IMG/VR virus record: IMGVR_UViG_3300009184_000038
Span: 1-64,000 of that record
Source of the DNA: a virus
Length of the DNA: 64,000 bases
Strand: one strand, 5' to 3'
Below the pieces are notes generated by a model that worked only from the letters and a program-made list of their open reading frames with translations, was not told the origin of the DNA and did not search any database. Both the position numbers and the translations under genes were made by a program. Positions 1 to 36,314 of this stretch are shown piece after piece. Each line of letters starts with the position of its first letter. Within the stretch, counting starts at the first letter, position 1.

Positions 1-467
1 AGCAGGCCGATCGCACGCACTTCGCGCTTGCGAATACCTCTCTGACCGTCCGTAGACCACGAGTCTCCACCGTCTCGCTTGATGGCGAAGGCGAAACTTG
101 ATCCGACGACTGTCCTATCCTTCACCCACTCGATAACGTCGCGGCCGATGGAGGTGTTTTCGTTCGGCGTGATCTCATAACGAAGACCATACGGGTCTTT
201 CGTGAGCTTCATCGTGCCGTTTCCGGTTCGGCCAAGGAGCAGATTGCGGTCGTGATTGAACACGCCGATCACATCCGGCCCCTCGGCGAGCACTTCGTCG
301 AACGCATTCTCATGAATCGTCTCGACGAACCCACCCAGGTTGCGACTTTCGGAGTTAAAGACGGCAGCGTAGCCCGCGATCACAGGCTTCCGCTCGCCAT
401 TGCCCGTGTCTCGGTACTCAACCGTAGCGTCCGAGACCGTCGTGCGCCGCTCAATTTCATTGCTCAT
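1..467 (-). CDS. HK97-family prohead protease (3' part runs off the window)
   Basis: Manual translation from ATG at 467: MSNEIERRTT...IAGYAAVFNSESRNLGGFVETIHENAF...FNHDRNLLLGRT...GLRYEI...GSSFAF. These are typical peptidase U35/S78 motifs. ATGA overlap with the upstream gene. Confidence 0.93.
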   Translation of the reverse strand, partial: MSNEIERRTTVSDATVEYRDTGNGERKPVIAGYAAVFNSESRNLGGFVETIHENAFDEVLAEGPDVIGVFNHDRNLLLGRTGNGTMKLTKDPYGLRYEITPNENTSIGRDVIEWVKDRTVVGSSFAFAIKRDGGDSWSTDGQRGIRKREVRAIGL

Positions 468-937
468 GCCGTCACCTGATTCGCGAGGTAGTTTTCCACA
501 CCGATCTGCTCGATAATCTTCCGAATGGCTTCAATGCCGGCCATCGAATCTTCGCTGCCACGGCGAAGCTTCATGAAAATCTTTGCCGTGACTGAGTCGC
601 CAACCGCGATGCACGTCACAAAGCCGGCCCGCTCGACCTCCGCGGCCGTCACGTCGGCGTCGTAGTTCACGTCAAGGATGGATTCAAAGTCGTGCCGGGG
701 CAGTTCGGGCTCGTCGTGCGTCGGCGACGGCTGGACATCGAAGAACTCAAGTCGTTCGGAGAGTTTCTTGATGTGCCCGCGTTCCTCGGCCGCATAGGAC
801 GCCCAGGTCTCGCCCAGCTTCCCGTAGCCCCAGCGGGTCAGGTGAACTGACTGAAGCTCATACATCTCGGCCTGCGAAAAGTGCAGGGCAAGGGAAGCCT
901 GCAATGCGTCGACAACGCCTTCAAGTGGCTGCGGCAT
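464..937 (-). CDS. bfr: Bacterioferritin-like protein with degenerate ferroxidase centre
   Basis: 157 aa. Aligns by eye without gaps to E. coli Bfr: WGYGKL, EERGHIKKLSERLEFF, IEQIGVENYLANQ. Confidence 0.85.
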   Translation of the reverse strand: MPQPLEGVVDALQASLALHFSQAEMYELQSVHLTRWGYGKLGETWASYAAEERGHIKKLSERLEFFDVQPSPTHDEPELPRHDFESILDVNYDADVTAAEVERAGFVTCIAVGDSVTAKIFMKLRRGSEDSMAGIEAIRKIIEQIGVENYLANQVTA

Positions 938-2570
938 CGGTTGTCAGGTGCTTGTCGCACCAGCCTTCTGTGACTGTTTCGTACTTCTGACCGCTGCGAT
1001 GGCACTCAAGCAAGAGTTCCCGCGAGCGGTTCACCCAATCCCCAACAAACTTGTCGATGTCTCGTCCAGTGGCCTCTGCGGCCTCGCGAAGTTCTTCTCG
1101 CATCCGCTGGCTCGTCTGATCGAACCACGTTGCGATCTTCTCGGGCTTGCTGCGGCGCTCGAGAACGCCGTCAGCTTCGACGGCGGCGAGACGGCGAAGG
1201 TTCGTCTTGAACAGCACCTCGGCACCGGCGACCTGTCGGGCATCCTCGGCAGCCGCGGGGGTGTCGGCGGCGGCCGGCTCGGGCGTGTCGGCCACGCCGG
1301 CCGGCGGAGCTGGCGAAGATTCGGTCTGCTTCTGCCCCGTGGGGTTGTCGGCGGTGAACGCCTCGAGCAACTGCATATTTACCTGAATGAACCGCTTCTT
1401 GCCCTGCCCGTCGGGCAGCGGGTTGTAGCCAATCTGCGAGCGAATTTCGTCGATGTCCAAGGCACCGAGGTTCGCCATCTCCCGCAGGAACTGCGAACGC
1501 GCGGCGTAGTCACCGACCATCAAGGCGTTCGTGTCGAACTGGCAGAAATACTGCTTGTCGTCGACTACGAGATCGCGGCGGCACGCCATTTCCCATCGGC
1601 GGCACCACGGGATCAAGCTGAACGTGACGAAGTCGATGGCCGACTGTTCCACAGTCGAGAAACGAACATTCGACAAATCACCGATAAGGTGGCCTGGGAC
1701 GCGGTAGGCACGCGAGACCTCCTCGCATTGGTACCGGCGAGTCTCAACGAGCATAGACGTATCGTTACGCTGCTCGATCTGCTTGCGGTGGAAGCCGAAC
1801 GGCATGACAACGGTTTTGTATGCGTTCATCGGCCCCTGATGGGCGTCGTTCCACTGCTCTCTGAACCGGGCCAGCACCTCTGGCTTGTGGGGCTGGTCGG
1901 TTTCGATGTAAGTGCCGGGCTGTCCGTTGTTCCCGAAGAATGCACCCGAGTGCAGCTCGGTCGCTCGGGCCAGACCGATCGCGTCTCGGGACAGGGTCGT
2001 TGGTACAAAGCCTGTCACCCCGTCTGACGAGAGCCACCGCAAATGAAAAATCTCGTCCTGCCGATACTCAGTGACCTCGATCTTGGGCTGAACCGGCGTC
2101 GTCGGTTCGGTGTAGTAATACCGGAGCTTGCCGTTGGTGAGCCGCTTGACCTCCATCCGCGAAGGATGCAGCGGGATAAGCTCGGTCACGCCGCCCTGCC
2201 GGCCGCCCTTGATGTGAGCGTAGGCGTTGCCCCAGAGCAGGAGCCAGCTTTGCATCAACTCGCGGAACTCGAAGCCCGTCATCCACGAGTTGGGCTGATA
2301 GCAGATGACCTCGTGGAGATGCTGCTCTTCGGCGATTTCCTTGCCGCCGCCGGGTAGGCGGCGGTAGACGTTGAAGGGGAGGCTGGCGATCGACTCCGAC
2401 AGTACGCGAACGCAGGCGAGAACAGCCGTGCATTCCAGGGCCGTCTCGGGCGAGACCGTGACGCCCGATGCCGTGCGTCTGGTATTGGAAATCTCCTCGA
2501 AGATGCGGGACAGATTGCCGCGAAGCTCAATCAGATCGGAGACTTCTTCGTCAATCTTATCCACGTTCAA
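921..2570 (-). CDS. HK97-family portal protein
   Basis: Motifs AVLACVRVLSESIASLP, LLLWGNAY, LIPLHPSRM, EIFHLR, RAYRVPGHLIG, EIRSQIGYNP; lies directly after terL. Confidence 0.96.
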   Translation of the reverse strand: MNVDKIDEEVSDLIELRGNLSRIFEEISNTRRTASGVTVSPETALECTAVLACVRVLSESIASLPFNVYRRLPGGGKEIAEEQHLHEVICYQPNSWMTGFEFRELMQSWLLLWGNAYAHIKGGRQGGVTELIPLHPSRMEVKRLTNGKLRYYYTEPTTPVQPKIEVTEYRQDEIFHLRWLSSDGVTGFVPTTLSRDAIGLARATELHSGAFFGNNGQPGTYIETDQPHKPEVLARFREQWNDAHQGPMNAYKTVVMPFGFHRKQIEQRNDTSMLVETRRYQCEEVSRAYRVPGHLIGDLSNVRFSTVEQSAIDFVTFSLIPWCRRWEMACRRDLVVDDKQYFCQFDTNALMVGDYAARSQFLREMANLGALDIDEIRSQIGYNPLPDGQGKKRFIQVNMQLLEAFTADNPTGQKQTESSPAPPAGVADTPEPAAADTPAAAEDARQVAGAEVLFKTNLRRLAAVEADGVLERRSKPEKIATWFDQTSQRMREELREAAEATGRDIDKFVGDWVNRSRELLLECHRSGQKYETVTEGWCDKHLTTDAAAT

Positions 2571-4069
2571 AGCACCATGAGGGTTGGTTCGTCGGTGTTG
2601 CCGTGGTTCTCGCTGCTGGAGATACCGAGGGCCATGATCAGAGAGACCGCGCCGTCGATGCGGGCCGTCGAGTGTGAGTGTTTTTTAGTAGGCTTTATGT
2701 TCCCGGCATCGTCGATCTTGACTTGAACATTCGACATCTGCCACGCCAGAACGGGGTTGCCAGCGTGTCTCAGCCTTTTGCCGACGACGAGTGTCTCGAG
2801 CAGCTTGCTCGGCGCGCTCATGCTGGCAAAGCCCTGTCCAAACGGCTTAACGTCGATTCCCTCCGCTACCAGTTGCGTCGTCAGATGCACCGCGTTCCAG
2901 CGGTCAATGGCGATGCCGCGAACTACATTCTTCTCGCAAAACGAGAGAATGTAATCTCGGACTGTGTCGTAGCAAGTGATATCACCATCCGTCATTCTAA
3001 CAAAACCAGCGTCCGCCCAGGCTTGATACGGCACTCGGTCTTCCTTCGACCGCTTGTGCGCGTTCTCCTCGGGGATGAAGAAGTGGGCGTGAACGTCATA
3101 CGTTCCATCGGCGTCGGGCCAGACCGCCACGAACGCCGTCGTATCGAATGTGCTGGCGAGGTCAACGCCGCACCAGCATGGCCGCCCTGCCGTCGGCCGC
3201 AGCGGCTCGTTGTTGGCGTCCCAGGCACCATGCCTGATCCACTTGGTTTCGGAACGCTGGAATAAATTCAAATGGAGCGTCTTGAAAACAGTCTCGTCTG
3301 CCGGCGAGTCCTTCGCCTTCTGTGCGAATTGATGGAAATACTCGGGTTTCAGCGTAATTCCGTAGTTCGGATTCGCCTTCTTCCACGTCTCCTCGACGAA
3401 CGGGTCGTCCTCGGGATCGGCGGCGTAGATGCACGGCAGGAACGAGTCGTCCTTCAGAACCCCATCGCGAATCTTCACTGCCCGCTGCCAGTCCTTGTAG
3501 CACGGGCCGTCCATGTCGGTGCCGGCCGTCGTGATGTAGATGGTGAGCGGCTGGCTCCTGGCTCCAGTACCCGTTTCCAATACATCGACCAGCTCGCGGT
3601 CGGGAAAGACGTGATATTCGTCGACCAGCACGCAACTCGGGTTGTAACCGTGTTTCGTGCCGGCCTCGCTGGAGATACAGAGCATCGTCGAGTTCTTTTC
3701 GGGGAACACGATGCTGTTGCGGTATATCTTGCACCGCTTCGCCAGCGATGGGCAGCTTTCGACGAACTGCTTCGCCGCGGTATGGAGCAGCGCCGCCTGA
3801 GAGCGGTCGCCGGCCGCGACGATCACCTCGGCCCCCTCGTCATCGCAGCACAACATGAACAATCCAACCGCTGCGGAAATCGCGGATTTTCCGTTCTTGC
3901 GGGGCAAGGCGAGCAGGCTTGTTCGATATTGGCGAAGACCGTCGGCCTTCTTCGTGTTGAAGAGTTTGTCGAGGTACTCGTCCTGCCAGGGTTGCAGGAC
4001 AAATGGCTGCCCCGCAAAGTCACCTCGACTGTGCTTCAGTAAGCCGATGAAATCGCGGATATCAACCAC
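2567..4069 (-). CDS. terL: Terminase large subunit
   Basis: LQPWQ, Walker A PRKNGKS, Walker B VLVDEYH, ITTAG, nuclease GVDLAS and RIDGAVS. Confidence 0.97.
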   Translation of the reverse strand: MVDIRDFIGLLKHSRGDFAGQPFVLQPWQDEYLDKLFNTKKADGLRQYRTSLLALPRKNGKSAISAAVGLFMLCCDDEGAEVIVAAGDRSQAALLHTAAKQFVESCPSLAKRCKIYRNSIVFPEKNSTMLCISSEAGTKHGYNPSCVLVDEYHVFPDRELVDVLETGTGARSQPLTIYITTAGTDMDGPCYKDWQRAVKIRDGVLKDDSFLPCIYAADPEDDPFVEETWKKANPNYGITLKPEYFHQFAQKAKDSPADETVFKTLHLNLFQRSETKWIRHGAWDANNEPLRPTAGRPCWCGVDLASTFDTTAFVAVWPDADGTYDVHAHFFIPEENAHKRSKEDRVPYQAWADAGFVRMTDGDITCYDTVRDYILSFCEKNVVRGIAIDRWNAVHLTTQLVAEGIDVKPFGQGFASMSAPSKLLETLVVGKRLRHAGNPVLAWQMSNVQVKIDDAGNIKPTKKHSHSTARIDGAVSLIMALGISSSENHGNTDEPTLMVL

Positions 4070-4544
4070 GCTTGGCTAGAAGAGCGTCCATTGGGTCTTG
4101 CACGACCTTCTCGGCGTGATAGCCCATTCGGGTGCGATCGGCTGGCGTCAGGCCGAGGACAGTCTCAAGCTGCCGGAGTTGCTCGTGGCAGTGATTGCTC
4201 TGGGACTGCCACTTGTTCGGGCGGCTGAAGCGGAGGGAGCCGTCGGGTGCCGTCACCTCGACCCACCCCGAGTCCAGCTTGGCAAGCTGCATCTCGGCGT
4301 CTCGCCAGCGATCCCAGATGATCGAGTATCGCGAGATCACTTCGACATCGCTCTCGGCCAGCGTGCCCATCCTTTGGGTGTAGCCGCAGACGAGGCTGAA
4401 CATCTCCCTGGCTGCCGGCCGCATCCATGACGGAGGGGCGGGCAGCGAGGACAAGGGTGTGCCTAACTCCTCGCGGTAGTTGGCTTCCTCGGAGCCTCGC
4501 AGCTTGAGGAGATGCTTCGGCGTTGGTGCTGGGCCGCGTGCCAT
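4062..4544 (-). CDS. terS: Terminase small subunit (P27 family)
   Basis: MARGPAPTPKHL..LRG, PAPPSWM, LGLTPADRTR; immediately upstream of terL. Confidence 0.9.
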   Translation of the reverse strand: MARGPAPTPKHLLKLRGSEEANYREELGTPLSSLPAPPSWMRPAAREMFSLVCGYTQRMGTLAESDVEVISRYSIIWDRWRDAEMQLAKLDSGWVEVTAPDGSLRFSRPNKWQSQSNHCHEQLRQLETVLGLTPADRTRMGYHAEKVVQDPMDALLAKRG

Positions 4545-4546
4545 GC

Positions 4547-5587
4547 CTAAGAGTATTGCACAGTAGGTAAGGGCCCCGCAAAGGAGTCGGATTTCTTGAT
4601 GTTGCACGCCCAGCAGGCGGCCTGGACATTGTCGGGTCTATGGCCTGGGCCGGAGGGGCCGTAAGACAGGGGCACGATGTGGTCGATCGTGGGGCTGCGT
4701 GGGTGCGGAGTCTCGCTGCCATCGATCTTCGTCCATTTGGAGAGCAGCTCACACTGGCATATCTGGCACGTCCAGTTGTCGCGATGAAGTATCGACTTCG
4801 CTGGAAACGATTCGTAGTGGCAGCCGTATTTAATGCACCTACGTTTGTGTCCGCCAGAATTGATTCCGACATTCAGCGGCGTGCATGTGTCGTTACCCCA
4901 CGAGCTGAACCAGACGGCGATCTGCTCGTCAAGCGTAGCTCCAGGCCGGCTCGTCAGCCTAGCGCATGGAAGGCGAAGTCGCCTCGCCTCGAAGGCACAT
5001 TCTCTGGAGCAGTATTTGCCAGCGTTTCGCCCAGATGTGCGCTTTCGGAATGGCTTTTGACAACAGAGGCACTGCCGCCGCTTCGCCCGCCTTTTGGATG
5101 CCTCCGCTCGCTTTCCCTGGGCCTCCGAGATGGCTTTTTCAGCGCAGGGCCGCGAACAGAACAGGCTTCTTGACCGGCCTGGGATAAAGGCTTTGCCGCA
5201 GCACTTGCACGCTTTTTCGGCGAATCGACTGGGGTATCGGCATTTCTCGCTACAGAACATCGAGTTGATTAACCCGACGAAGCTCACGCCGCATCCGCAG
5301 CACGTCCGATCGTGAACCCTCTTCTTCCGCTTCGCTGCACGGCGGCACGCTTCAGAGCAGTACCTTCGCGACCGCCCACTCGCTCGCGAGTCCTGCGGAA
5401 CGCCGGCACCGCAGGAGACGCACGCAACAGTCGCTGGCTTTAGCGGCCTCCCCTCGGCGGCTCGCTGGCAGCGACGAGAACAGTATTTTCTCGGCTTAAC
5501 GCCGAGCGAGGGGGGGAGCGACGACCCGCAAACAACGCAGCATTTGCCATCCTTGGCGTTTTCTCCGGCGTCTCCACGCACCCACAC
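4547..5587 (-). CDS. HNH endonuclease with five N-terminal CxxC...(Y/F)CSxxC zinc-ribbon repeats
   Basis: C-terminal RDNWTCQIC...TIDHIVPLS...H...NVQAACWACN; repeated KYCS/RYCS/FCS motifs. Start codon uncertain. Confidence 0.85.
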   Translation of the reverse strand: MWVRGDAGENAKDGKCCVVCGSSLPPSLGVKPRKYCSRRCQRAAEGRPLKPATVACVSCGAGVPQDSRASGRSRRYCSEACRRAAKRKKRVHDRTCCGCGVSFVGLINSMFCSEKCRYPSRFAEKACKCCGKAFIPGRSRSLFCSRPCAEKAISEAQGKRAEASKRRAKRRQCLCCQKPFRKRTSGRNAGKYCSRECAFEARRLRLPCARLTSRPGATLDEQIAVWFSSWGNDTCTPLNVGINSGGHKRRCIKYGCHYESFPAKSILHRDNWTCQICQCELLSKWTKIDGSETPHPRSPTIDHIVPLSYGPSGPGHRPDNVQAACWACNIKKSDSFAGPLPTVQYS

Positions 5588-25869: not shown

Positions 25870-26543
25870 TACTTTTCAAGCTCCCGCAGCACGCCCTCGA
25901 TGATCGGGTGCCTGACAATGTCTGTGCCCTTGAACTCGACGACGCCAACGCCCTTCAGGCCCGACAACCGCTGCATCACGTCGATCAGACGCCGCTCGCT
26001 CCTGGGGAGGTCGGACTGGTCGGCATCGCCCGTGACGATGATCTGGCTGCCCGTACCGAGGCGGGTGAGAAAGAGCTTGAGTTGCCCGAACGTCGAATTC
26101 TGTGCTTCATCAAAAATCATGACAGAACGCGAGAATGTGCGGCCTCGAAGGTATGCGAGAGGCGCGATCTTCACCGCGCCGCTGATGCGGTCGCGGGTAT
26201 GGCCGCGCTTGCCGGCGATCCGCTCGAGCGCGTCGAAAAATGGCACGAGGTACGGGCCGACCTTCTCTTCTGCACTTCCAGGCAAGTAGCCGAGCTGCTC
26301 CGTCGCCACCGACGGTCGTGTGATCACGATGTTCTCCACCTTGCCGTCAACGAGCTGCTGGACGGCGTAACCGCTCGCCAAGTGTGTCTTCCCCGTGCCG
26401 GCTGGGCCGAGCACGAACGTAATCACGCTCCTGCTGATCACCTCGAGCGCGTGAGCCTGGGCCTTCGTGCGTGCGGCGTAGCCCTCCGGCGGCGGCGGCA
26501 GTGCGGGCTTCTTCTTGGATTGGCGTTCGCGCTTTCGGTTCAA
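25869..26543 (-). CDS. phoH: PhoH-family ATPase
   Basis: GPAGTGKT, ITRP, LGYLPG, PLAYLRGRTF, DEAQN, LTRLG, GDADQSD, DIVRHP. Confidence 0.95.
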   Translation of the reverse strand: MNRKRERQSKKKPALPPPPEGYAARTKAQAHALEVISRSVITFVLGPAGTGKTHLASGYAVQQLVDGKVENIVITRPSVATEQLGYLPGSAEEKVGPYLVPFFDALERIAGKRGHTRDRISGAVKIAPLAYLRGRTFSRSVMIFDEAQNSTFGQLKLFLTRLGTGSQIIVTGDADQSDLPRSERRLIDVMQRLSGLKGVGVVEFKGTDIVRHPIIEGVLRELEK

Positions 26544-28966
26544 GTGTTGTCTCCTTTAGTGGCCTTATTAATGCGGTAACCGAGCCAGACCATGCACGGC
26601 ACGGCCATGCTGTTTCCGAGGGCGCGGTAGCGGGGGCCGTCGGCGGCTGGCTTCTTGCGGAAGATGATGTCTGTGTGTCCTGCGGGGAAGCCTTGCAGAT
26701 ACTCGCACTCGGATGGCGTGAGGCGGCGCACTTGCATGGAACTGCGGACGCTGGCGTCTGCGACGAACGTGTCCTGTGAGTCACGGCCACTTCCGAACAC
26801 CCCGCCCTTGCCCTGCGCACCAGCGGAAATCGCATACGCTGGGTCTGGGAATCCAGACGGAGTCGGCAAGCACACATTGACCGCGTCGGCTCGCCCGCCG
26901 CCGCCTGGATTCGTTAGGGAAGGAACGACGCCGTCCTTCATGATCTCCGGCACCTTGACGCCGTCCCGCGAGCGATTGGCGAAAGCCACAGCAACCATGT
27001 GCTTCGGCGGCTCGTGCCGCTCGTCCCAGCCATTCAAGCAAGCAGAAACGGCGGCCTCTTCGTATCGCGGAGCCTCTTCCTTACTGTGCGGGTTCGTCGC
27101 CTTGACGTAGGCGACGGCAGGCTGCGCGATATACGTCTGCTGGTGGCTCCCAGGCTCTGCACTGCACACGCTGGCGACATCAAGAATGCGAACCTCTTCT
27201 CGCTGGTTTTGGGTGAATGCGACGGCGTGCGGCTGACTTGCGTCCATCGTCGGAGAAAGCTCCTCCAGCGGATTGAAAGAGGGGTTCCGCAGTCGAACTC
27301 GTCCCTCCGCATCTGCACTAGGAGTTTTTGCGACCCCCTCTCTCCCGGCGTCACCTCGCAGCCCGTAGGCGACGGCCAACTGGCCGCCAGCGTTTGCGTT
27401 GCCGTCAACGTGCTGCATCGCCCGCATGGTCGGCGACAGCTCTGCGGTAGCATCGCCGCTGTAGTCCTTGGCCGTAAACGCGACGGCAGGCGTGTTGCAC
27501 CGCTGGAGCGGGCCAGTGCCCTCTTCTGTGATGCCCAGGCTATCATTGGCCTTGCCGTAGCCGCCGCCGTTCTGCCAGTTGAATCCCACGGCGTTTGCGG
27601 GCTGCGCGATCACGCATGACGGTCGGCTCGGCCTGTCTTCTCCCTCGGCCCGCAGCGTGCCCGCTATCTCGTCTTTCATCCAGAAACCTTGGCCGCTCTC
27701 CCGCATTGCGTGAGCCTGCGCGGTAGCACAGACAACCGTATCCTGATCGCCCTTGTCCGCATCGGCCGAAAGCGGCGGCGCGATATCTGATGGCTTGCCG
27801 TCCTTGCCTCGCGTGAAATGCGATGGCTTAAAGCAAGTCGCCTCGTCAAAGACACCCCCTGTGGTAACGATCGGCGTTTGGCCTTCGTCCACCGTCGTGT
27901 TCATGCCCTTGTGCATTCGATGCGTCAGCGGGTTGGCGACAGACGGCAAAAATGCGACCGCTGTATGCGTCCTGTCCGTTAAGCCCCCCCCCCTGTGAGC
28001 ACCATCAGAGAGAGTTCCAACAACATTAGGAACGCCGACAACTTCTCTCTCACCAAAAGCCGCAGAACCGCAGCCTTTGAAGTAGTGCGAGTCCAGCGTG
28101 CCTGCACACTGCCCGCTGATCCCCACCGCCGCCGGCCCCCTAGCGACCATGCTGCCAGCCACGCCGTCCTGCGTGATCTGCGGCTTGTACTGAGCATTCA
28201 CTCCTTGGTTGAACATGGCTCGGTCAAGGTAGCACGGCTCACCACCGACTCGAGGGCGTCCTTCAGTGCCGGCGGCAGCTCCTTGCCCCGCTTTGCTGCG
28301 CGACGGAGGATTCCCTCGCACGCTTTCGCGGAGAGAAAGTATCTCGGATGGACAGGCGTCGTCTCCAAGACTTGCGACAAGTTCACAAGGCACGGCAACG
28401 AGAAAGACTCGCCTACGCCTCTGAGCCACCCCAAAGAATTGGGCGTCAAGGATTCGATAACCCACTCGTCGGGTTTCTCCACAAACATAGCCTGCTTTAG
28501 GCCACTTACCTGTTTCAGTTTGAGGGGCTTCATCGCACCCAGCGAGCGCTCCGATGAGGCATCCAAAGGCGTTGTCCTTTGTTGAGAGGAGTCCAGGGAC
28601 ATTTTCGTAAACAGCAATTGCTGGCGGTCTTCCATGACGCTTTCTCACTTCATCTATGTGGTTCAGTAGCCTAACGTAGGCTAGCGTGATATTGCCTCTA
28701 TCATCATCCAGACTCTTGCGGAGACCGGCCACGCTGAACGCCTGACACGGCGGGCCTCCGACGAGGAGGTCGCACTCCGCAAGAATTTCTTCGGGCCATT
28801 CGGCGAACTTCGTCATGTCGCCGAGGTTCGGCACCTGGGGCCAGCGAGCCGCGAGCACGGCAGACGGGAACGCCTCGATCTCGCTGAATGCCAGCGGCGT
28901 CCAGCCAAACCCGTGGAATGCGACAGTGGCGGCCTCAATGCCGGAACAGATGCTGATGTAGTTCAT
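26540..28966 (-). CDS. dcm: C5 DNA cytosine methyltransferase with greatly expanded variable region
   Basis: Motif I ICSGIEA, IV GGPPCQAFS, VI ENVPG, VIII QRRRRVF, C-terminal RRLTPSECEYLQGFP and RYRALGNSMAVP. Confidence 0.93.
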   Translation of the reverse strand: MNYISICSGIEAATVAFHGFGWTPLAFSEIEAFPSAVLAARWPQVPNLGDMTKFAEWPEEILAECDLLVGGPPCQAFSVAGLRKSLDDDRGNITLAYVRLLNHIDEVRKRHGRPPAIAVYENVPGLLSTKDNAFGCLIGALAGCDEAPQTETGKWPKAGYVCGETRRVGYRILDAQFFGVAQRRRRVFLVAVPCELVASLGDDACPSEILSLRESVRGNPPSRSKAGQGAAAGTEGRPRVGGEPCYLDRAMFNQGVNAQYKPQITQDGVAGSMVARGPAAVGISGQCAGTLDSHYFKGCGSAAFGEREVVGVPNVVGTLSDGAHRGGGLTDRTHTAVAFLPSVANPLTHRMHKGMNTTVDEGQTPIVTTGGVFDEATCFKPSHFTRGKDGKPSDIAPPLSADADKGDQDTVVCATAQAHAMRESGQGFWMKDEIAGTLRAEGEDRPSRPSCVIAQPANAVGFNWQNGGGYGKANDSLGITEEGTGPLQRCNTPAVAFTAKDYSGDATAELSPTMRAMQHVDGNANAGGQLAVAYGLRGDAGREGVAKTPSADAEGRVRLRNPSFNPLEELSPTMDASQPHAVAFTQNQREEVRILDVASVCSAEPGSHQQTYIAQPAVAYVKATNPHSKEEAPRYEEAAVSACLNGWDERHEPPKHMVAVAFANRSRDGVKVPEIMKDGVVPSLTNPGGGGRADAVNVCLPTPSGFPDPAYAISAGAQGKGGVFGSGRDSQDTFVADASVRSSMQVRRLTPSECEYLQGFPAGHTDIIFRKKPAADGPRYRALGNSMAVPCMVWLGYRINKATKGDNT
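28198..28635 (-). CDS. Nested alternative-frame gene resembling the M.EcoHK31I beta subunit
   Basis: LSQVLET..VHPRYFLSAKACEGILRRAAKRGKELPPALKDAL in a different frame inside the methyltransferase gene. Confidence 0.78.
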   Translation of the reverse strand: MEDRQQLLFTKMSLDSSQQRTTPLDASSERSLGAMKPLKLKQVSGLKQAMFVEKPDEWVIESLTPNSLGWLRGVGESFSLPCLVNLSQVLETTPVHPRYFLSAKACEGILRRAAKRGKELPPALKDALESVVSRATLTEPCSTKE

Positions 28967-29106
28967 TTCTTCTTTGCCTTTTCCTTGGCGTTTTTGGCGA
29001 TATCAAGAGCGATGGCGACTGCCTGCTTGTGCGGACGACCAGCCTTCATCTCAGTCTTGATGTTCGCGCTGATTGTCTTCGGGCTATACCCCTTTTTGAT
29101 TGGCAT
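28963..29106 (-). CDS. Small basic phage protein (47 aa, not in ORF track)
   Basis: MPIKKGYSPKTISANIKTEMKAGRPHKQAVAIALDIAK...; GGAGG RBS; ATGA overlap with the methyltransferase start. Confidence 0.75.
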   Translation of the reverse strand: MPIKKGYSPKTISANIKTEMKAGRPHKQAVAIALDIAKNAKEKAKKK

Positions 29107-29202
29107 TCTTGCCCTCCACGATGATTCGGAACTCGGAGCACCCGCACTTCGGACATGGCCCGTTGGTTTTCTTTGGCTCGTTGCAGCGATTGCAGAAGCG
29201 GT

Positions 29203-29835
29203 TCATGGGAGTAGCCATTCTTCAAAGCCCCGCCACCCGATCTGAGCAGCCCACTGAACGCTTACGCCGCTAGGGAACTTCAGCCGTCCGTGCTTGTGAA
29301 TCTTGCTGTGACAGTCGGAGCACACTGTCAGGAGATCGGAAAGCTCTTCTCTGAATATGCTTTCGTATGCAACGTGATGGCACTGAATCTCTTCAGAGTC
29401 TCCGCACAGCACACACATCATTGAATCGTGCTCAAACCTTGCCGAACGAACAATCTGCCAATGCGGTGTCATGTAGTAAGCCGAACGCATCTCTGGAGTT
29501 ACTCTTGCAAGCGATGGCTTCTGCCTCGTGTCGGGCATGAAGTAAGGAGAGGCGTGGCTTCCGTCGCCCTTAATCAAAAAACCATGTGCATTTCGCAACT
29601 GCTCAACAACAGGCGCTAGCCTGCTGCCATCGCTCAGTTCGCTTTCGTAGACGCTTTTTTTCAAAAGGTCGCCTGACCTTAGTCGAGCAAGAACGTCGCA
29701 TTGAGCTTCGTCTCGCTGATGAAAGTCACGAGCTGTGTTTTTCAGCTCTTCCGCTGCCTCAAACGGAATGCAGGCAGACAAACACGAATCGATGCTGTTT
29801 TCGTATCCCATAATGCCCCCTGCCTCTGTGGTCAT
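29203..29835 (-). CDS. HNH endonuclease with N-terminal extension
   Basis: YYMTPHWQ...CVLCG...CHHVAY...LLTVCSDCHSKIH. Confidence 0.8.
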   Translation of the reverse strand: MTTEAGGIMGYENSIDSCLSACIPFEAAEELKNTARDFHQRDEAQCDVLARLRSGDLLKKSVYESELSDGSRLAPVVEQLRNAHGFLIKGDGSHASPYFMPDTRQKPSLARVTPEMRSAYYMTPHWQIVRSARFEHDSMMCVLCGDSEEIQCHHVAYESIFREELSDLLTVCSDCHSKIHKHGRLKFPSGVSVQWAAQIGWRGFEEWLLP

Positions 29836-30047
29836 TGCCCTTTCCTCTCCTCAAGCCAGTCAGCCGCCTTCTCAAGCCACGCGGCGACTCTCCGCAGGGC
29901 TTCTGGGTTTTCGCTGTAGTCGGGATCGCCTTCGCACGGCGGGAGCGTGTCGAACATGACATCGACATACGGCGTCGAATGCTCCTCGTCGCGACAGGTC
30001 AGCGAAAACCGCTCGTCGTCGATGTCGATTGGGGACGGTGGTTTCAT
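29832..30047 (-). CDS. Hypothetical protein
   Basis: Coupled ORF. Confidence 0.55.
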   Translation of the reverse strand: MKPPSPIDIDDERFSLTCRDEEHSTPYVDVMFDTLPPCEGDPDYSENPEALRRVAAWLEKAADWLEERKGQ

Positions 30048-30159
30048 TCGTCATCCCCCGTCATGTAGGGAAGCAGGCTGAAGTAAAAAACCGCCCCGAC
30101 GGCCACGAGCAGAGTCGTGACGTTAAGCCAGAGGCTCATGTGTGATTCGATTGGGGTCA

Positions 30160-30402
30160 TCACTCACCTCGCAGATAGCCGAGCCATGTGCGGGCCGGCT
30201 TCCGCAGCTCTTCGACCTCGTCGAGAAGGCTGTTGAGTGCCTTCTCGGCGTTCTCGAGGCGAACGGTCAGGGCCGCGACTGACTTCGTCAACGCGACGGC
30301 CATGCGGTCGGTCGATTCGCCTTCTTCGCGAAGGTCGTGAACCGCCTGGGCGATACCGGCGATCGTCTTTTCAACGCTGCACTCGGGCTTTTTCTTTGCC
30401 AC
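30160..30402 (-). CDS. Hypothetical coiled-coil protein (GTG start)
   Basis: GGAGG RBS upstream. Confidence 0.6.
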   Translation of the reverse strand: MAKKKPECSVEKTIAGIAQAVHDLREEGESTDRMAVALTKSVAALTVRLENAEKALNSLLDEVEELRKPARTWLGYLRGE

Positions 30403-30452
30403 CAGAAATCCTCCGTGAATGAAACAACGAACGAGAACAGAAAGCCGGTCGA

Positions 30453-30641
30453 TCACGACGCGGCCTCCTCCGTTTTCGGAGGGGCGCGGTAGATCAGTTC
30501 CTCGCGGATGATCTTGACGTGCTTGGGTGCGTCGATGACGAGCCTGACCGTCTTGCCTACGACAGACTCGACCGTGATCTCGATGCGAGGCCGATCCAGA
30601 ATGAGCTTCTGGCCGGGGCGACGAGTTAAGCAAAGTGCCAT
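30453..30641 (-). CDS. csrA: Carbon storage regulator CsrA/RsmA homologue
   Basis: LCLTRRPGQKL...IEITV...VRLVIDAPKHVKIIREEL. Confidence 0.9.
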   Translation of the reverse strand: MALCLTRRPGQKLILDRPRIEITVESVVGKTVRLVIDAPKHVKIIREELIYRAPPKTEEAAS

Positions 30642-30674
30642 GTGGGAATCCTTTCCGCTGTGGTGATCAGTAGC

Positions 30675-31151
30675 CTAACGAGTGGTGCCAGTAGCGTCCA
30701 GATGTTTTTTGCACATCTCGCGAACCGTCGGTCGCGGGTGGTTGTCGATTGCCCATTTTAGGTAGTCCAGGCCACGCGGCTGCTTCTCCACCTCTGGTAG
30801 CGTGAGGCCGGCGAACCGACCGTCACGCAGGACGAACTCCTGATCCCTCGGCTTCAAGTGCCCCTTGATCGCTCGCACCCACTGGCCGGTGCCACAGAAG
30901 ACGCACGACACATACCACTCGCCGCCGTCCTCGTAGAGGATGTCGTGGAGTTGGGTGCCGCAGGCGGCGTCTGCGCAGTCGTAGGTGTGATCGATCATGC
31001 CGATTGGCAGGATCGCTCGTGGAGCAATTCCCCCTATATAAATAGGGTCTTTTTTGGGTTTCTCGGGTTCAATTGGATGGGCCGCGGCCGGTTGCGCGCG
31101 GGAGCGTTTTCGGGTCGGCTCATCTGGCGAAATGTCGAATAGCAGGGTCAT
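30675..31151 (-). CDS. Hypothetical protein with zinc ribbon and DUF3820-like C-terminus
   Basis: CADAACG...CVFCG; GRFAGLTLPEV...DYLKW. Confidence 0.6.
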   Translation of the reverse strand: MTLLFDISPDEPTRKRSRAQPAAAHPIEPEKPKKDPIYIGGIAPRAILPIGMIDHTYDCADAACGTQLHDILYEDGGEWYVSCVFCGTGQWVRAIKGHLKPRDQEFVLRDGRFAGLTLPEVEKQPRGLDYLKWAIDNHPRPTVREMCKKHLDATGTTR

Positions 31152-32839
31152 ATGGGCATCTCCATGCGGAACTTCTCTCGGGGGTCGTGGGCCACAATCA
31201 ACTTCTTTCGCGCTCGAGTAACGGCGACGTACTCGATTCGCCGCTCCTCGTCGTGACGGTCTTCGCTGCGTTCCTCGCCTTCGCGGATGCGGCGGCCGAC
31301 GCTGGTCAGGATGATCACGTTGTCGGCCTCCATCCCCTTGGCCGAATGCACCGTCCCGATGCGAATCTTCGGGTTGGCGACGGCTTCGATGCCCCACTGC
31401 TTCGCGGCTCGGCACCATGTCGCCCCGCCGTCGATCAGATCGCCCCAGGTGCCGGCGGCGATCTTCTCGCGGAGGTGGTCGGTGGCCCCGACATCGCCAA
31501 GCTCCTCGGGAAAGAGGGCGTCGTAGCGATCTTTCACGCCCCGGTTCCACTGTGTTTTCGCCCCTCGAATCAGCCACGTCTTCTCGTCGCGGCCGTCGCC
31601 TTTCTTGCTGATTGTCGCACTCGGTAGCAATTCAATGGCCTGTGTCCACTCCTCGGCACTGGCGGGCTGGCCGTTCTGGAGCTTCCACAGGCCCGTCATG
31701 CCAGCATCGCGGTTGTAGGCTCCCTGCTTGGCCTTGATCTTCCGAAACGGAACACCGACATCGTCAAGGATCGTGGCGATCTTGCCGACGTGCCGATTTG
31801 TCCTGGCGATGACCAGCGTCTCATCCTTCGGCGACAGATCGCTCAGATCGTCCTCGAAGTTATCGCTTTCGATGATCTCGCCGTCGTGGTCGGCGGCCTC
31901 GACGCCGCGGTTCCAGTACCCCTTGGTGAGCCTCTGGAGGCAGTCCTCGCCAAGCTGGAGGATCGGCTTCGCACAGCGGTAGCTCTTGGGCATGATCTCC
32001 TGCCGATCGACCTTCCAGCCCATGAAGAACTCGCTCGACGCCCCGGCCCATGAGTAAAGAACCTGAAACGGGTCGCCGACGAGCCACGCCCATCGGCAGG
32101 AGTCGCCGGTCACGAGCCGCCGGCAGGCCATGTCGAGGAGGCGGCTGGCGTCCTGCGCCTCGTCGAAAATCCAGCCGACGACTTCGTTCGGCACCGCGCC
32201 CTCGGGCGTGACCATCTCGGGGCCGGTGGCCGGGTTGTTGGCGACCCCGACGAACCGGGCGAGCATATCGGTGAAGTCGAGTCGGCCGTCCAGACGCTTG
32301 GCCGACTCGTACATCTCGATGCGACGGATCACCTCCTCGGCCGTCGGGCCGTCGGGCTCCCACTCGTAGGCGGCCTCGGCGATCTCGCGCAGGGGGGCGA
32401 CCATGCTCCTCGCCAGCGACCAGTAGTTGAGGGCCGCCGCGGCGATGGGGTCGCCCGTGTAGATGCCGATGCCCCCCTCGGAGTCCTCGTCCACGCAGTA
32501 GGACACGTCGCTGCCGAGGGCTTCGCTGATCCACTTGTCGTCGGCCTTGCTGCCGCCAATGACCTCGCCCTTCTGGATGCCGAGCTGCCGGTAGGCCACG
32601 CTGTGGGCGGTGCGGAACCAGCCGTGCCGCTCGAGTTCCGACTGCTGCATTCCCCAGGCCGCAGCAGCACGCCCAGCAGCCTCGCTGCGGGCCGCCCGCG
32701 TAAAGGACGAGAAACCGATGGCGAACGGATTACCGCCCACCTCCGGCCTCGCCAGAGCCTTCTCGGCGGTGTTGATCATCAGCCTTGTCTTGCCCGTTCC
32801 GGCTGATCCGACCGCCCGAAGAACCTTCAAATCGTCCAT
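31148..32839 (-). CDS. UvrD/Rep-like superfamily 1 helicase
   Basis: GSAGTGKT, SFTRAA, RTAHS, DEAQD, GDPFQ, SYRC, TVHSAKGMEAD, YVAVTRARK. Confidence 0.92.
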   Translation of the reverse strand: MDDLKVLRAVGSAGTGKTRLMINTAEKALARPEVGGNPFAIGFSSFTRAARSEAAGRAAAAWGMQQSELERHGWFRTAHSVAYRQLGIQKGEVIGGSKADDKWISEALGSDVSYCVDEDSEGGIGIYTGDPIAAAALNYWSLARSMVAPLREIAEAAYEWEPDGPTAEEVIRRIEMYESAKRLDGRLDFTDMLARFVGVANNPATGPEMVTPEGAVPNEVVGWIFDEAQDASRLLDMACRRLVTGDSCRWAWLVGDPFQVLYSWAGASSEFFMGWKVDRQEIMPKSYRCAKPILQLGEDCLQRLTKGYWNRGVEAADHDGEIIESDNFEDDLSDLSPKDETLVIARTNRHVGKIATILDDVGVPFRKIKAKQGAYNRDAGMTGLWKLQNGQPASAEEWTQAIELLPSATISKKGDGRDEKTWLIRGAKTQWNRGVKDRYDALFPEELGDVGATDHLREKIAAGTWGDLIDGGATWCRAAKQWGIEAVANPKIRIGTVHSAKGMEADNVIILTSVGRRIREGEERSEDRHDEERRIEYVAVTRARKKLIVAHDPREKFRMEMPI

Positions 32840-32984
32840 TTGATCCTCCTGATCCCCCACTAGCGGGGCGTAAGATGGGTAAACCTAGATTTTCCGTCCA
32901 CAAAAACCGCTTTACGTCTGAACTTTTTGGTGCCTGGACGTGGATTCCCCGGATTTTACGAAATTTCGCGGACACCCTAAGTCC

Positions 32985-34793
32985 TTATCCAGCAATGACT
33001 TCCGACTCAATCCGCAGAATCCGCGTCTCGGCGCGATGTTTTTCACCATTTTCGATGGCCGCCTCCCCCGTATTAAGCGGCAAGTTCTCAGCCCCCCCTT
33101 CGGCCAGTGATTCGATGGCCGCGATCCACTCTGGCGTGAACACGACGTAGCTCCTTTTCGTGGTGCCGAACGTGTGCCGGCCCTCCCTGAAGTCGCGGGC
33201 CTTCATGCGGTCGCAGAGCAGACGCTTAATCCGAATCCGCTCCCCGGCTGCCACGTCGTGGGCTCGTCCGATCTCCTCCCACGTCTTCACCCAGCCCAGC
33301 CACATCTCGCCGGGGGTCACCCATCTGGGCCTGCCCGACCGCTCGGGCTCGGGCTTGTCCTCGCTGGCCGGCTTCGCGCGTGCCAGCGTCTCGAGCAGAT
33401 AGGCAGCCAGCGTGGCATACCGCAGGCTGGACGTGCCGACGTGTACGTCGTCGGTCTTCTGCTTCTCGATGAACAGCTTCTCGAAGAGGCCGGTCAGCTT
33501 CGGCCGCTTGCTGTTGCCGTCCTGGCCTCGCCAGATGGTCTGCCACTCGCCGATGTCGCCGTGCAGGATCACTCGGCGGGTTGACTCGAATATCTTCTTC
33601 GCCACCATCTTCGCCGACTCAAACTCAGCGAACGAGAATGCGATCTCGCCCTTGCATGGCGTGTTCTTCCACTGCGGGACGCACAGGATAATCTCGGCAG
33701 GGTCGGAGCAGATGACGCGAATCTTCCAGTCGCCTGGAGTCCACTCGCCGTCCTTCCAGCCCTCGACCGCAGCCCACTTGAGCCCGTGCATGGCGTAGCC
33801 GCTGACGGGAGCCTGCTGCCGCTTGCCCTCTTCCTCCTCCTGGGCGATCTTGTCGGCGACGGCCGCCAAGCTCTCCTCGGTTTCGGGCATGGAGTCGCCG
33901 CGAGCCTCCATCTTTCGGCGGTACTCGACGCACGAGTAGAAGAGCGTGCGAATCTGGGCCGGCGTCTTCGGCGGCTTGCATCGCCGCTCGTTGACCAGCT
34001 CAATCTCCATGAGCATATCGGCCTGGGCAGCGCCGCTGAGATACCTCGCGTGACTGAACACCTTGCTGGTGACGTAGCTCAAGAGGTGCGGGTGCCTGCC
34101 GCCCTCCTTAATGTCGCCGTGGAGCACGGCCCGCGATGACACGCCGGCCGACTCCCGCGTGCTCATATCAACGTCGTTGACGATCGCCCGCAGGAGCACG
34201 TCGGGCAGCGGGGCGAAGTCAACGTCGTCCATCGACAGACCCGGTTTCCAGCGATACTGCACGCCGCTCCAGTGCCAGCTCGGCGGCAGCACGCTCTGCG
34301 CGTCCAAGTCGCCCGTGCCCAACCGCACCTCCAGGCCACCGGGCTTCACGACCGCGGGGCAGCCGGAGAGGCGATCGTCCCACTTGAACAGCCGGTGCTC
34401 GGAGCGGCCTGAGACGTATGTCGGCGTCTCGATCTCCGTCAGACCCATCGTCTCGGCGTGTGCCTTTGCTTTCTCGTCATCCCACTCCATGTCGATGACG
34501 CCGCTGCGGGGGCCGAGCAGGATGCCGATGTTGAAAGGCTTCCCCGTATCCTTCGCCTCCTCGACCCAGTCGAGCAGCGTGTCTTCGTCGGCAGCGGCTC
34601 GGTCGCCCCACGCCTTGCCTCGCGGGTGCTTGCCGCACTGCATCTGGGCCGCGCCGCCGATCTTGTGATCGGGGTTGCCGCAGGCGCACGACCCGTCGGG
34701 CATGATGCCGTAGTCGCGGACGATCTTGCATCCCTTCGACTGCGCAAGCGCGCCCTCCTTGAACACGGCATCACCATCGAACTCGAAAGCCAC
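32985..34793 (-). CDS. Bifunctional primase-polymerase with PriCT domain
   Basis: CACG...GKHP, NIGILLG..SGVIDMEWD, GRSEHRLF, SVLPPSWH, IKEGGRH...CKPP; RBS AAGGAGG before the GTG. Confidence 0.85.
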   Translation of the reverse strand: MAFEFDGDAVFKEGALAQSKGCKIVRDYGIMPDGSCACGNPDHKIGGAAQMQCGKHPRGKAWGDRAAADEDTLLDWVEEAKDTGKPFNIGILLGPRSGVIDMEWDDEKAKAHAETMGLTEIETPTYVSGRSEHRLFKWDDRLSGCPAVVKPGGLEVRLGTGDLDAQSVLPPSWHWSGVQYRWKPGLSMDDVDFAPLPDVLLRAIVNDVDMSTRESAGVSSRAVLHGDIKEGGRHPHLLSYVTSKVFSHARYLSGAAQADMLMEIELVNERRCKPPKTPAQIRTLFYSCVEYRRKMEARGDSMPETEESLAAVADKIAQEEEEGKRQQAPVSGYAMHGLKWAAVEGWKDGEWTPGDWKIRVICSDPAEIILCVPQWKNTPCKGEIAFSFAEFESAKMVAKKIFESTRRVILHGDIGEWQTIWRGQDGNSKRPKLTGLFEKLFIEKQKTDDVHVGTSSLRYATLAAYLLETLARAKPASEDKPEPERSGRPRWVTPGEMWLGWVKTWEEIGRAHDVAAGERIRIKRLLCDRMKARDFREGRHTFGTTKRSYVVFTPEWIAAIESLAEGGAENLPLNTGEAAIENGEKHRAETRILRIESEVIAG

Positions 34794-34823
34794 GGGAACC
34801 TCCTTGTGTTGTGTGCAAAGAAT

Positions 34824-35006
34824 CCCCCGCGGAGCCGCCACTGCTGACGGCCCCGCGGGGTTTAATGTCGCCATCACAGGCCCGTGAGAGATGCACGGGT
34901 GATCTGCGACGACTTCGCTGGGTTACAAAGCCACGCCAACGCATAGGCTGCCGGCCCGCTGGGACGATGTTGACCGGCGGGTTTCGTCGCCGGCCCGACA
35001 GCGAAG
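34824..35006 (-). ncRNA. Candidate structured RNA leader upstream of Prim-Pol
   Basis: Several nested stems; the 16-bp stem at 34825-34860 is fully paired only on the minus strand (two G-U pairs). Confidence 0.4.
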
Positions 35007-35008
35007 AA

Positions 35009-35791
35009 CTACTCGTCGCCGATGTCGGCAGCGTTCACGGTGGCCCCGGCGGGCGGCGCGCTGAACATCTGCGTCAGGGGCTTGTGGTAGACCGCTTCGG
35101 CCACCGCACCCTGATCCTCACTGATCGTGCCAACTACGCGCGGAACGATCTGCGAGTAGGGCTGACCGCCAGCGTTCTTGATTTTCTGGAGCTTCAGCCC
35201 GATGACGCACTCGTAGAGGAACGACGGCAGCCGCTTCTTGAACGGCAGCCAGTTCGCCAGCGACCCCGGCCCGACGGTCACGAGGATCGGCCACGTCTCA
35301 CCATCGCGAAGGACGGCGAGCACGCGGCTTTCCTTGACCTTCCGCGAACGGCCGCCGCCCTTGCCACTGCCCCATCCGAACTCGGGGCCGGTGGAGAGCG
35401 CCGCCCAGTCGAACTTTTTGTCGCCGATGCGATACCGTTCCAGAGCCTTGGGATCGCAATCACCGAGATCGTCGGAGACGCGGTAGCCGACGATCAGATC
35501 GTGCGTCACGATCACCGGACGCATGTCCGACGGATCATCTTTCGGCCACAGCGTGCCGCGGCGGCCCTCGGCGACGAGAAGACCGACGATCTCCTCGGTC
35601 GTCTCCACGTTGCCTTGGTTGTCAATGCTCCAGACCGTGCCACCTCCGGCCGGCGTGGGAACGCGGATCAAGTCCTGCTCCCTCATCGGCTCGCCCTCCA
35701 GGTTCGCCTGGATGATCCTGGCCTGCCGACTCGTCGGCGACAGCGCGGGGTAATCGATCACCTTCAAACTCGTCGAAATCGCTGTGCTCAT
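35009..35791 (-). CDS. Putative ssDNA-binding/replication protein
   Basis: Position between helicase and primase; acidic C-terminus; IRVPTPAGGG motif. Confidence 0.55.
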   Translation of the reverse strand: MSTAISTSLKVIDYPALSPTSRQARIIQANLEGEPMREQDLIRVPTPAGGGTVWSIDNQGNVETTEEIVGLLVAEGRRGTLWPKDDPSDMRPVIVTHDLIVGYRVSDDLGDCDPKALERYRIGDKKFDWAALSTGPEFGWGSGKGGGRSRKVKESRVLAVLRDGETWPILVTVGPGSLANWLPFKKRLPSFLYECVIGLKLQKIKNAGGQPYSQIVPRVVGTISEDQGAVAEAVYHKPLTQMFSAPPAGATVNAADIGDE

Positions 35792-35861
35792 GGGTTTCTC
35801 CTAGAGCGTTTATCGATCCATCAACCAGCCGCGCGGGCAACGCGCCCGCGCGGCAACTTCA

Positions 35862-36314
35862 TCAGCCGACCGTGACGTGCCGCAGCACAGGCCGGATGTA
35901 CTCGCTCACGAGGCCGGCGAACGCCGTGCCGTCAGCCCAAGGCTCGCGGGCATCCTTTCCCGCGGCTTTGTGCATCTCCTTGAGCACAGACTTCAGTTGG
36001 CTCGTGTTGACGCCAATGAGCTGCTTCTCCATCCCTGCCGCCCGTGCCGCAGCCAACACCGCATCCTTGTTGTCAGCCGTGGCGGAAACGGAGTGATCCC
36101 ACTCCACCCGCCAACTCCGTCCAGCGACTCGAACTCCGTCGAGCCTCCCAGCCGTCATCTCCTCGACGGCGATTTCTGCGAGCGACTCTCGCCGCTTCTT
36201 GAGTTCCTTCACGACCAGCTCGGCCACGTCGATTTCGCGGTCGATCTGGGCGATCTTTTCAAGCGCGCTCGAGAGCGGCGTTGTGTCTTGTCCGGTAGGA
36301 ATTGCAAACGACAT
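35862..36314 (-). CDS. Hypothetical coiled-coil replication-module protein
   Basis: RBS GGAAG; N-terminal coiled coil. Confidence 0.65.
   Translation of the reverse strand: MSFAIPTGQDTTPLSSALEKIAQIDREIDVAELVVKELKKRRESLAEIAVEEMTAGRLDGVRVAGRSWRVEWDHSVSATADNKDAVLAAARAAGMEKQLIGVNTSQLKSVLKEMHKAAGKDAREPWADGTAFAGLVSEYIRPVLRHVTVG

Follow-up and report, generated by a model that had tools for sequence, protein, structure and literature searches.

Background

The L chain of vertebrate ferritin lacks a ferroxidase centre, keeps the fold and the assembly surfaces, and co-assembles with active subunits. Specialised subunits also occur naturally among the bacterioferritins (Bfr), such as Shewanella SoBfr1 (PDB 9iig) and Magnetospirillum Bfr1, which still build cages (PMC12120770, PMC6529640). 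Haem-free Bfr subunits carry Lys at position 52, and mixed Bfr subunits can co-assemble in vivo when co-expressed (PMC12120770). In E. coli Bfr, the B-pore has been shown to be one of the principal paths taken by iron (PMC4319037). Genes of the ferritin superfamily are also carried by viruses, including virus-encoded bfr described as an auxiliary metabolic gene (PMC10904782), and Dps and Mn-catalase of 'Gratiaviridae' and Lactobacillus phages (PMC8008677), all of them described as host-like and catalytically intact. Such phage genes are usually filed as host-derived metabolic helpers. In encapsulin systems (EncFtn, IMEF, Mycobacterium BfrB with Enc), the gene of a ferritin-fold cargo protein and the gene of an HK97-fold shell lie in one operon.

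Here we describe a bacterioferritin-like (Bfr-like) gene in the head operon of a tailed, uncultured phage of approximately 74.5 kb, belonging to a clade that is almost only viral. Similar to Bfr (TIGR00754; E. coli 1bcf, P. aeruginosa BfrB 3is7, Blastochloris 4am2), the protein has the same length, a five-helix subunit and a predicted two-fold dimer, and retains Y25, W35, E51, H54, E94, E128 and the helix E motif G-x-x-NYL (Bfr numbering). Unlike Bfr, the phage family has His for E18, Arg for M52, Ser for E127, and Ser, Ala or Gly for H130, and thus neither the haem ligand nor a complete di-iron site; it also differs in its variable H46, in Arg at the B-pore position D34, in a WPRHD motif at 79-83, and in its restriction to phages. 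The haem-free hetero-Bfr subunits SoBfr1 and Magnetospirillum Bfr1 likewise have a basic residue for Met52 (Lys in SoBfr1, Arg in the phage family) that fills the haem pocket across the dimer, but they keep the ferroxidase centre and specialise in it, whereas the phage family lost half of it. Compared with the ferritin L chain, the putative ferroxidase-less subunit with retained fold and assembly surfaces is similar and the superfamily branch is different; nothing in the phage protein pointed to nucleation residues or to a partner subunit.

Like the viral bfr, Dps and Mn-catalase genes, the gene is a phage-carried member of the ferritin superfamily under purifying selection. Unlike them, it belongs to a distinct, phage-restricted clade whose metal site has been remodelled in a single uniform manner, lies mostly in the head-assembly operon, and occurs as divergent alleles in otherwise identical phages. 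The arrangement resembles that of encapsulin cargo in joining a ferritin-fold gene and an HK97-fold shell gene in one operon; it differs in that no cargo-loading peptide is present, the gene is also found away from capsid genes, and the shell is the capsid of a true phage, accompanied by a portal, a protease and a terminase. A literature search found no publication on a remodelled phage-only Bfr family. New here are the cassette exchange against near-constant head proteins and the several genomic contexts.

Genome features and head operon

The window analysed here comprises the first 64,000 bases of one virus record of 74,545 bp (G000), with a G+C content of 60.7%. Its minus strand encodes, in this order, an HNH endonuclease, the small and large terminase subunits, the portal protein, the Bfr-like ORF and the S78 prohead protease (Table 1). 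At the opposite contig end, the 396-aa frame is followed by an HK97-family capsid protein (PF05065), a connector, head-completion and tail-completion proteins, and a 1674-aa tape measure. In comparison with a 91%-identical relative (L006), the contig ends (window 1-3; G000 74543-74545) adjoin with 5 nt missing. Since the frame reads through the contig junction, the protease is predicted to be a single ORF of approximately 554 aa. Judged by these abutting ends and by the protease ORF that crosses them, the record represents a circularly permuted genome that is complete in essence.

The earlier note had described the Bfr-like gene as overlapping both the portal stop and the protease start. Both overlaps are present, with 17 nt shared with the portal ORF (921-937) and 4 nt, ATGA, shared between the Bfr-like stop and the protease start (464-467). 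Both ends of the gene lie inside neighbouring genes, and there is no space in this window for a promoter or terminator of its own.

Table 1. Coordinates of the features discussed in the text; positions are those of the window unless G000 is given.
Feature	Position	Strand	Remarks
S78 prohead protease, N-terminal domain	3..467	(-)	ORF runs past contig start
Protease remainder	G000 73353-74543 (= L001:13353-14543)	(-)	396-aa open frame; beyond window end
Bfr-like gene	464..937	(-)	157 aa; ATG start
Portal protein	921..2570	(-)	549 aa; Pfam PF04860
Large terminase subunit	2567..4069	(-)	PF03354 and PF20441
Small terminase subunit	4062..4607	(-)	PF05119
HNH endonuclease	4547-5587	(-)	346 aa; upstream of small terminase
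UvrD-like helicase	31148-32860	(-)	Replication block
Prim-Pol	32985-34877	(-)	Replication block
SNF2 helicase	36259-37650	(-)	Replication block
Portal 3' end			91-94% nt identity to L077 and L049
Bfr-like 5' end	902..937	(-)	First 12 codons; conserved
Bfr-like core	516..901	(-)	57% nt identity to L077 and L049
Bfr-like 3' end	464..515	(-)	Last 17 codons; helix E, ...IEQIGxxNYLANQV; 94% nt identity
Protease 5' end			86-88% nt identity to L077 and L049

Bacterioferritin homology and predicted fold

The Pfam Ferritin profile (PF00210) matched residues 10-142 of the Bfr-like protein with E=8.7e-10 and 39.1 bits, above the cut-off of 24.5. The NCBIfam bacterioferritin equivalog TIGR00754 matched over the full length with 31.2 bits, far under its cut-off of 125.55. 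With phmmer, at least 45 solved bacterioferritins were matched, the best being 4am2 (E=3e-8, residues 8-153 against 7-152). The gap-free alignment to Bfr at an offset of +1, which the earlier note had drawn by eye, was reproduced with the solved bacterioferritins. Searches of PHROGs with the Bfr-like protein found no family, and the PADLOC search gave no match.

An AlphaFold2 model built with 71 family sequences reached a pLDDT of 97 and presents the A-E helix pattern of Bfr, with helices at 8-35, 39-65, 84-111, 115-145 and 147-152, that is, a four-helix bundle and the short C-terminal helix E. Only 7 residues precede helix A, and 5 extend beyond helix E. The top Foldseek matches of the model were bacterioferritins only (TM 0.92-0.95, rmsd 1.1-1.8 Å, 155-157 columns). 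The assignment to the ferritin family, for which a profile search had been proposed, is thus backed both by the PF00210 match above threshold and by the Bfr fold of the model.

Metal and haem sites

At the offset of +1, the di-iron positions of Bfr read E18 to H19, E51 to E52, H54 to H55, E94 to D95, E127 to S128 and H130 to S131, and the haem axial ligand M52 reads R53, exactly as the earlier note had listed them. Three of the canonical six ferroxidase ligands are kept (E52, H55 and E/D95), one Glu is replaced by His, and two ligands are replaced by Ser. An alignment of 121 family sequences shows no variation at H19, Y26, W36, E51, E52, H55 and S128. E129 occurs in 97% of them, position 95 alternates between E and D, and position 131 between S, A and G. 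R53 is found in 113 of the 121 members (93%), and Met never occurs at position 53. The gene had been called degenerate; with the altered residues conserved across the family, the site is better described as remodelled and not as eroding. The ligands, the loss of Met52 and the equivalog score rule out a canonical Bfr.

What remains is a His2-carboxylate2 set (H19, E52, H55, E/D95) beside the conserved Tyr26, with small residues at the former positions of the bridging Glu127 and of His130. From established Bfr chemistry, the canonical di-iron centre would not be able to form, and from the residues we infer a loss of ferroxidase activity and of haem binding. The remodelled site could bind one metal ion. 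Ferroxidase sites of Dps use a similar His2/carboxylate2 ligand set, so that iron oxidation may not be lost and some iron chemistry at the remodelled site may still occur. Other positions have changed as well in the phage family: H46, a site on the inner surface, varies, an invariant Arg (R35) stands at the position of the B-pore residue Asp34 of BfrB (Asn in E. coli), and the WPRHD motif at 79-83 is new and conserved.

Predicted dimer and cage

The homodimer model gave an ipSAE of 0.56, compared with 0.00 for the best of three controls, a score that may reflect memory of solved Bfr dimers; 20 out of 30 proteins solved as one-chain pairs attain the mark applied to ipSAE, against 1 out of 23 whose structures are single chains. 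Agreement of contacts between runs was at least 96%, and the pLDDT of the partner was at least 92. The interface in the model is the canonical two-fold, which in Bfr runs through helices A and B and the BC loop. The invariant residues R35, E64, D67 and R81 form pairs between the two subunits, and R53 occupies the haem pocket. Because Bfr dimers are already solved, the model is to be read as a likeness and not as proof of the dimer.

Helix E matters only in the 24-mer, and it is the best-conserved segment of the family. This strong conservation suggests that cages may still form.

Distribution, origin and selection

A search of 5.8 billion proteins yielded 129 clusters of the family, with 48-94% identity, all metagenomic and all of 145-178 aa. 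In a profile search of 1.84 billion representatives, 33 clusters were found at E <= 1e-30, and bacterioferritins with the canonical E-E-M-H-E-E-E-H pattern start at approximately E 1e-22. Approximately 45 clusters (at 50% identity) possess the signature H-E-x-H-E-S/T-E, mostly together with WPRHD at 79-83. Only in a few distant members is the N-terminus extended, by 16-55 aa in which no known domain is recognised. Longer fused forms were not found at E <= 1e-10, which is weak evidence.

In a tree of 128 Bfr-like representatives, the 35 rows of the H-type group with 10 further-altered ones on the same side of a branch marked 99*, and the H-versus-E signature needs a single change. By this tree, the phage family branched once from bacterioferritin.

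The family is carried by 236 IMG/VR contigs. Among 185,579 prokaryotic species genomes (one for each species), there were only two carriers, both short MAG contigs that are terminase-portal-Bfr-protease fragments, i.e. head modules; the other matches in the species genomes have at most 35% identity, nearly all at most 31%, and resemble ordinary cellular Bfr. No family member was detected among INPHARED/GenBank phages, where the only match was a 24%-identical ferritin-like protein of a gut phage. Close pairs have dN/dS values of 0.04-0.16 (Nei-Gojobori). The gene is under purifying selection and is restricted to viruses almost entirely.

Genomic contexts

The order terminase, portal, Bfr-like, protease and capsid was found in 68 of the 80 nearest viral loci and in both MAG contigs, as far as the contigs reach, and in three further loci of a later scan, giving approximately 71 viral loci; these counts refer to the loci most similar to the seeds and are not an unbiased sample. 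The seed P0136 matched no viral locus. The proteases of these loci have approximately 560 aa, with an S78 domain followed by a C-terminal part as at the contig end of this record. The same portal-protease slot is occupied in L152/L153, an S78 lineage that is only distantly related (E 1e-48 for the portal, E 1e-4 for the capsid), and also in an unrelated head type with 52% G+C (L136), in which the genes overlap at their ends and encode a terminase of the gpA type, a portal of the lambda family (PF05136), the Bfr-like protein and a 745-aa ClpP-type protease. In L137, the Bfr-like gene is flanked by those of a gpA terminase and a lambda-type portal. The position between portal and protease, which the earlier note had suggested for a synteny survey, is thus kept in approximately 70 contigs of this kind and in two further types of head module.

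Approximately 22 loci lie outside head modules. Sixteen loci carry the gene in a replication module of the order Prim-Pol, UvrD helicase, X, DNA methylase and GP88, and in five the gene stands beside weak tyrosine-integrase matches, in one of them with an AAA_24 gene. A sixth candidate of the integrase type, L140, resembles one of these five, whose neighbours were scanned. A relative with the replication module (G002, 96 kb, 98% complete) possesses a related set of terminase, portal, protease and capsid genes without a Bfr-like gene inside, and its Bfr-like gene is located approximately 60 kb from the head genes. Occurring in varied contexts and swapped between backbones, the gene is a moron in this sense.

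Allele exchange

Four related contigs (L077, L049, L062 and L063) encode a terminase, portal and protease N-domain that are 94-98% identical to those of this phage, as are their capsid proteins where the contig reaches the capsid. Their Bfr-like protein is only 52-54% identical to that of this phage. At the nucleotide level, the divergence begins and ends within the Bfr-like gene (Table 1). From this pattern, the core is an exchanged cassette, and the conserved 3' end encoding helix E is likely a recombination arm.

The copies in head modules fall into two types across a branch marked 98* in the protein tree, and each allele type is found on backbones whose portals are 54% to 98% identical to that of this phage. 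Fixed differences between the allele types are limited to six positions. The other differences are spread evenly over helices A-D, while helix E and both termini are conserved; a single variable face was considered and dropped on account of this even spread. With a variable core flanked by conserved ends and near-identical neighbours, the alignments indicate that divergent alleles move between phages by recombination in the conserved gene ends, each allele being under purifying selection.

Cysteine motif of the prohead protease

The C-terminal part of the protease, of approximately 396 aa, contains two related stretches (AAKRGL...W...GGD) and the motif C-x2-C-x10-C-x14-C. This four-cysteine module has a weak match to Pfam HiPIP (E 0.011, 16.4 bits, below the cut-off of 22), and the motif is kept in most of the related proteases. 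In G002, a 2417-aa open frame (L158:4032-11282 (+)) has the portal at its N-terminus, fused to a long polyprotein, and the four-cysteine motif follows the portal domain at residue ~536; this polyprotein is followed by a 556-aa protease with the domains in another order. An obligatory link between the Bfr-like protein and the cysteine module was dropped, as the gene occurs without the motif in L014-L017, L065, L069, L071-L076, L136 and L152/L153.

Putative function

We tentatively favour the reading that the Bfr-like protein is a haem-less, self-associating, metal-binding accessory protein and not an obligatory part of the head. Its subunit fold is that of Bfr throughout, down to the short fifth helix, and the dimer interface on the two-fold axis appears to be retained. 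The protein would associate with itself as Bfr does, most likely into dimers and probably into cages. Each subunit would probably bind at most one metal ion, and a canonical O2-driven di-iron ferroxidase cycle would not be expected. The gene would be a self-contained accessory gene passed between phages as a cassette, and in this phage the protein would be made late and in quantity, as suggested by its translation together with portal and protease. It may serve to buffer or withhold iron or another metal, or to feed into host Bfr cages, during the assembly of progeny. The multiple contexts, the exchange of the cassette against constant head proteins and the lack of a terminal extension all suggest a protein that works alone and is not a fitted head part. 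However, the use of the portal-protease slot in three head-module types and of the terminase-portal position in a fourth is more than random insertion would give, and such a repeated head position favours a role linked to the head. Furthermore, a search among the phage ORFs for an iron-dependent enzyme (e.g. ribonucleotide reductase) that could profit from iron mobilisation found no obvious candidate.

A role in the head itself, with Bfr-like dimers or cages recruited to the prohead as cargo or internal protein, or acting as an assembly factor at the portal/protease step, is possible but rather unlikely. It is kept alive by the recurrence of the gene between portal and protease in head modules of unrelated types, where stop and start codons overlap (this lineage, L152/L153 and L136), by the slot between the gpA-type terminase and the lambda-type portal in L137, and by the four-cysteine module of the adjacent protease, which must enter the prohead together with the protease. 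The ferritin cargo of HK97-fold encapsulins offers a parallel, which the earlier note had also drawn. However, the Bfr-like protein has no leader and no C-terminal tail, and the lack of a terminal extension beyond the ferritin fold rules out an encapsulin-type cargo with a loading peptide. No fused forms were seen among longer proteins at E <= 1e-10 (weak evidence), approximately 22 loci lie outside head modules, the 52-54% identical alleles serve nearly identical head proteins, and a stable 24-mer would presumably be unable to exit via the tail. The reading as a virion component or encapsulin-like cargo is thus weakened by the replication and integrase contexts, the missing loading peptide and the divergent alleles beside near-identical heads. 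A more specific form, in which the Bfr-like protein and the HiPIP-like module are co-loaded in the prohead and would give an iron/redox compartment inside a true viral capsid as a counterpart of encapsulin-ferritin, appears improbable. We also consider it doubtful that the phage dimers enter host Bfr cages, dilute the ferroxidase and haem sites and disturb iron storage or release in favour of the phage, as the earlier note had suggested for a poison subunit. The retained dimer interface and helix E would permit this, homo- and hetero-Bfr subunits do co-assemble on co-expression (PMC12120770), and the rapid replacement of alleles between otherwise identical phages would fit differing host partners. 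However, the salt-bridge residues R35, E64, D67 and R81 of the interface are phage-specific and unlike those of cellular Bfr, the change from D34 to R35 at the B-pore is a further difference, late co-expression with head genes is an odd timing for a host take-over, and here, too, a phage enzyme that requires iron was not seen.

A new activity apart from iron storage, either a mononuclear metalloenzyme centre (His/Glu/His/Glu and Tyr) or a host-interaction or anti-defence factor on a ferritin scaffold, has only a slight chance in our estimation. The altered site residues are strictly invariant, and genes for host interaction typically show this pattern, in which the locus stays fixed and the allele is hypervariable between phages that are nearly identical. 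Nevertheless, PADLOC and PHROGs gave no match, and the retained helix E and dimer interface point to a cage-type protein. We know of no ferritin-fold anti-defence protein and of no mononuclear enzyme with such a ligand pattern. The missing canonical ligands and haem Met, together with the low NCBIfam score, would also be expected of a functionless moron decaying from a host bfr gene, which the earlier note had named as the case that would undo its proposal. The dN/dS values, the intact frames, the invariance of the substituted residues across sequences that are only approximately 48% identical, the hundreds of viral contigs with the gene and the high pLDDT of the model make this hardly credible, and selection and conservation rule out a decaying pseudogene.

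The family is a concrete protein for expression and testing. If cages form, they would be a natural haem-less cage without a full di-iron site, of interest for the ferritin mechanism and for the engineering of nanocages. Should the protein affect iron storage by the host or be taken into capsids, it would represent a new phage way of metal handling and would be relevant to how phage capsids and encapsulins are linked in evolution.

Other predicted genes

The HNH endonuclease upstream of the small terminase has, in its N-terminal half, many repeat units of the form C-x2-C...C-S-x2-C, which are kept in related contigs. Between the capsid and head-tail connector genes, a 242-aa ORF (L001:10580-11308 (-); G000 70580-71308) has a weak match to glycosyltransferase family 2 (E 1.7e-4, under the cut-off). 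A probable tail fibre or adhesin of giant size (2972 aa; 46025-54943 (-)) is encoded downstream of the tape measure. It contains immunoglobulin domains, carries RCC1 repeats at its C-terminus, and is followed by two fibronectin-type-III proteins (43165-45710).

The window also harbours a replication and modification block at 26540-37650 (-), which includes an 808-aa C5 cytosine methylase and is of the same kind as the blocks that house the Bfr-like gene in other phages. A 157-aa ORF after the helicase (30160-30633 (-)) was considered as a second Bfr-like copy and rejected. Pfam matches among 50 smaller ORFs of the window are to PhoH, HNH (two ORFs), DUF551, GNAT, methyltransferases (two) and, weakly, a phage integrase (E 4.5e-6).
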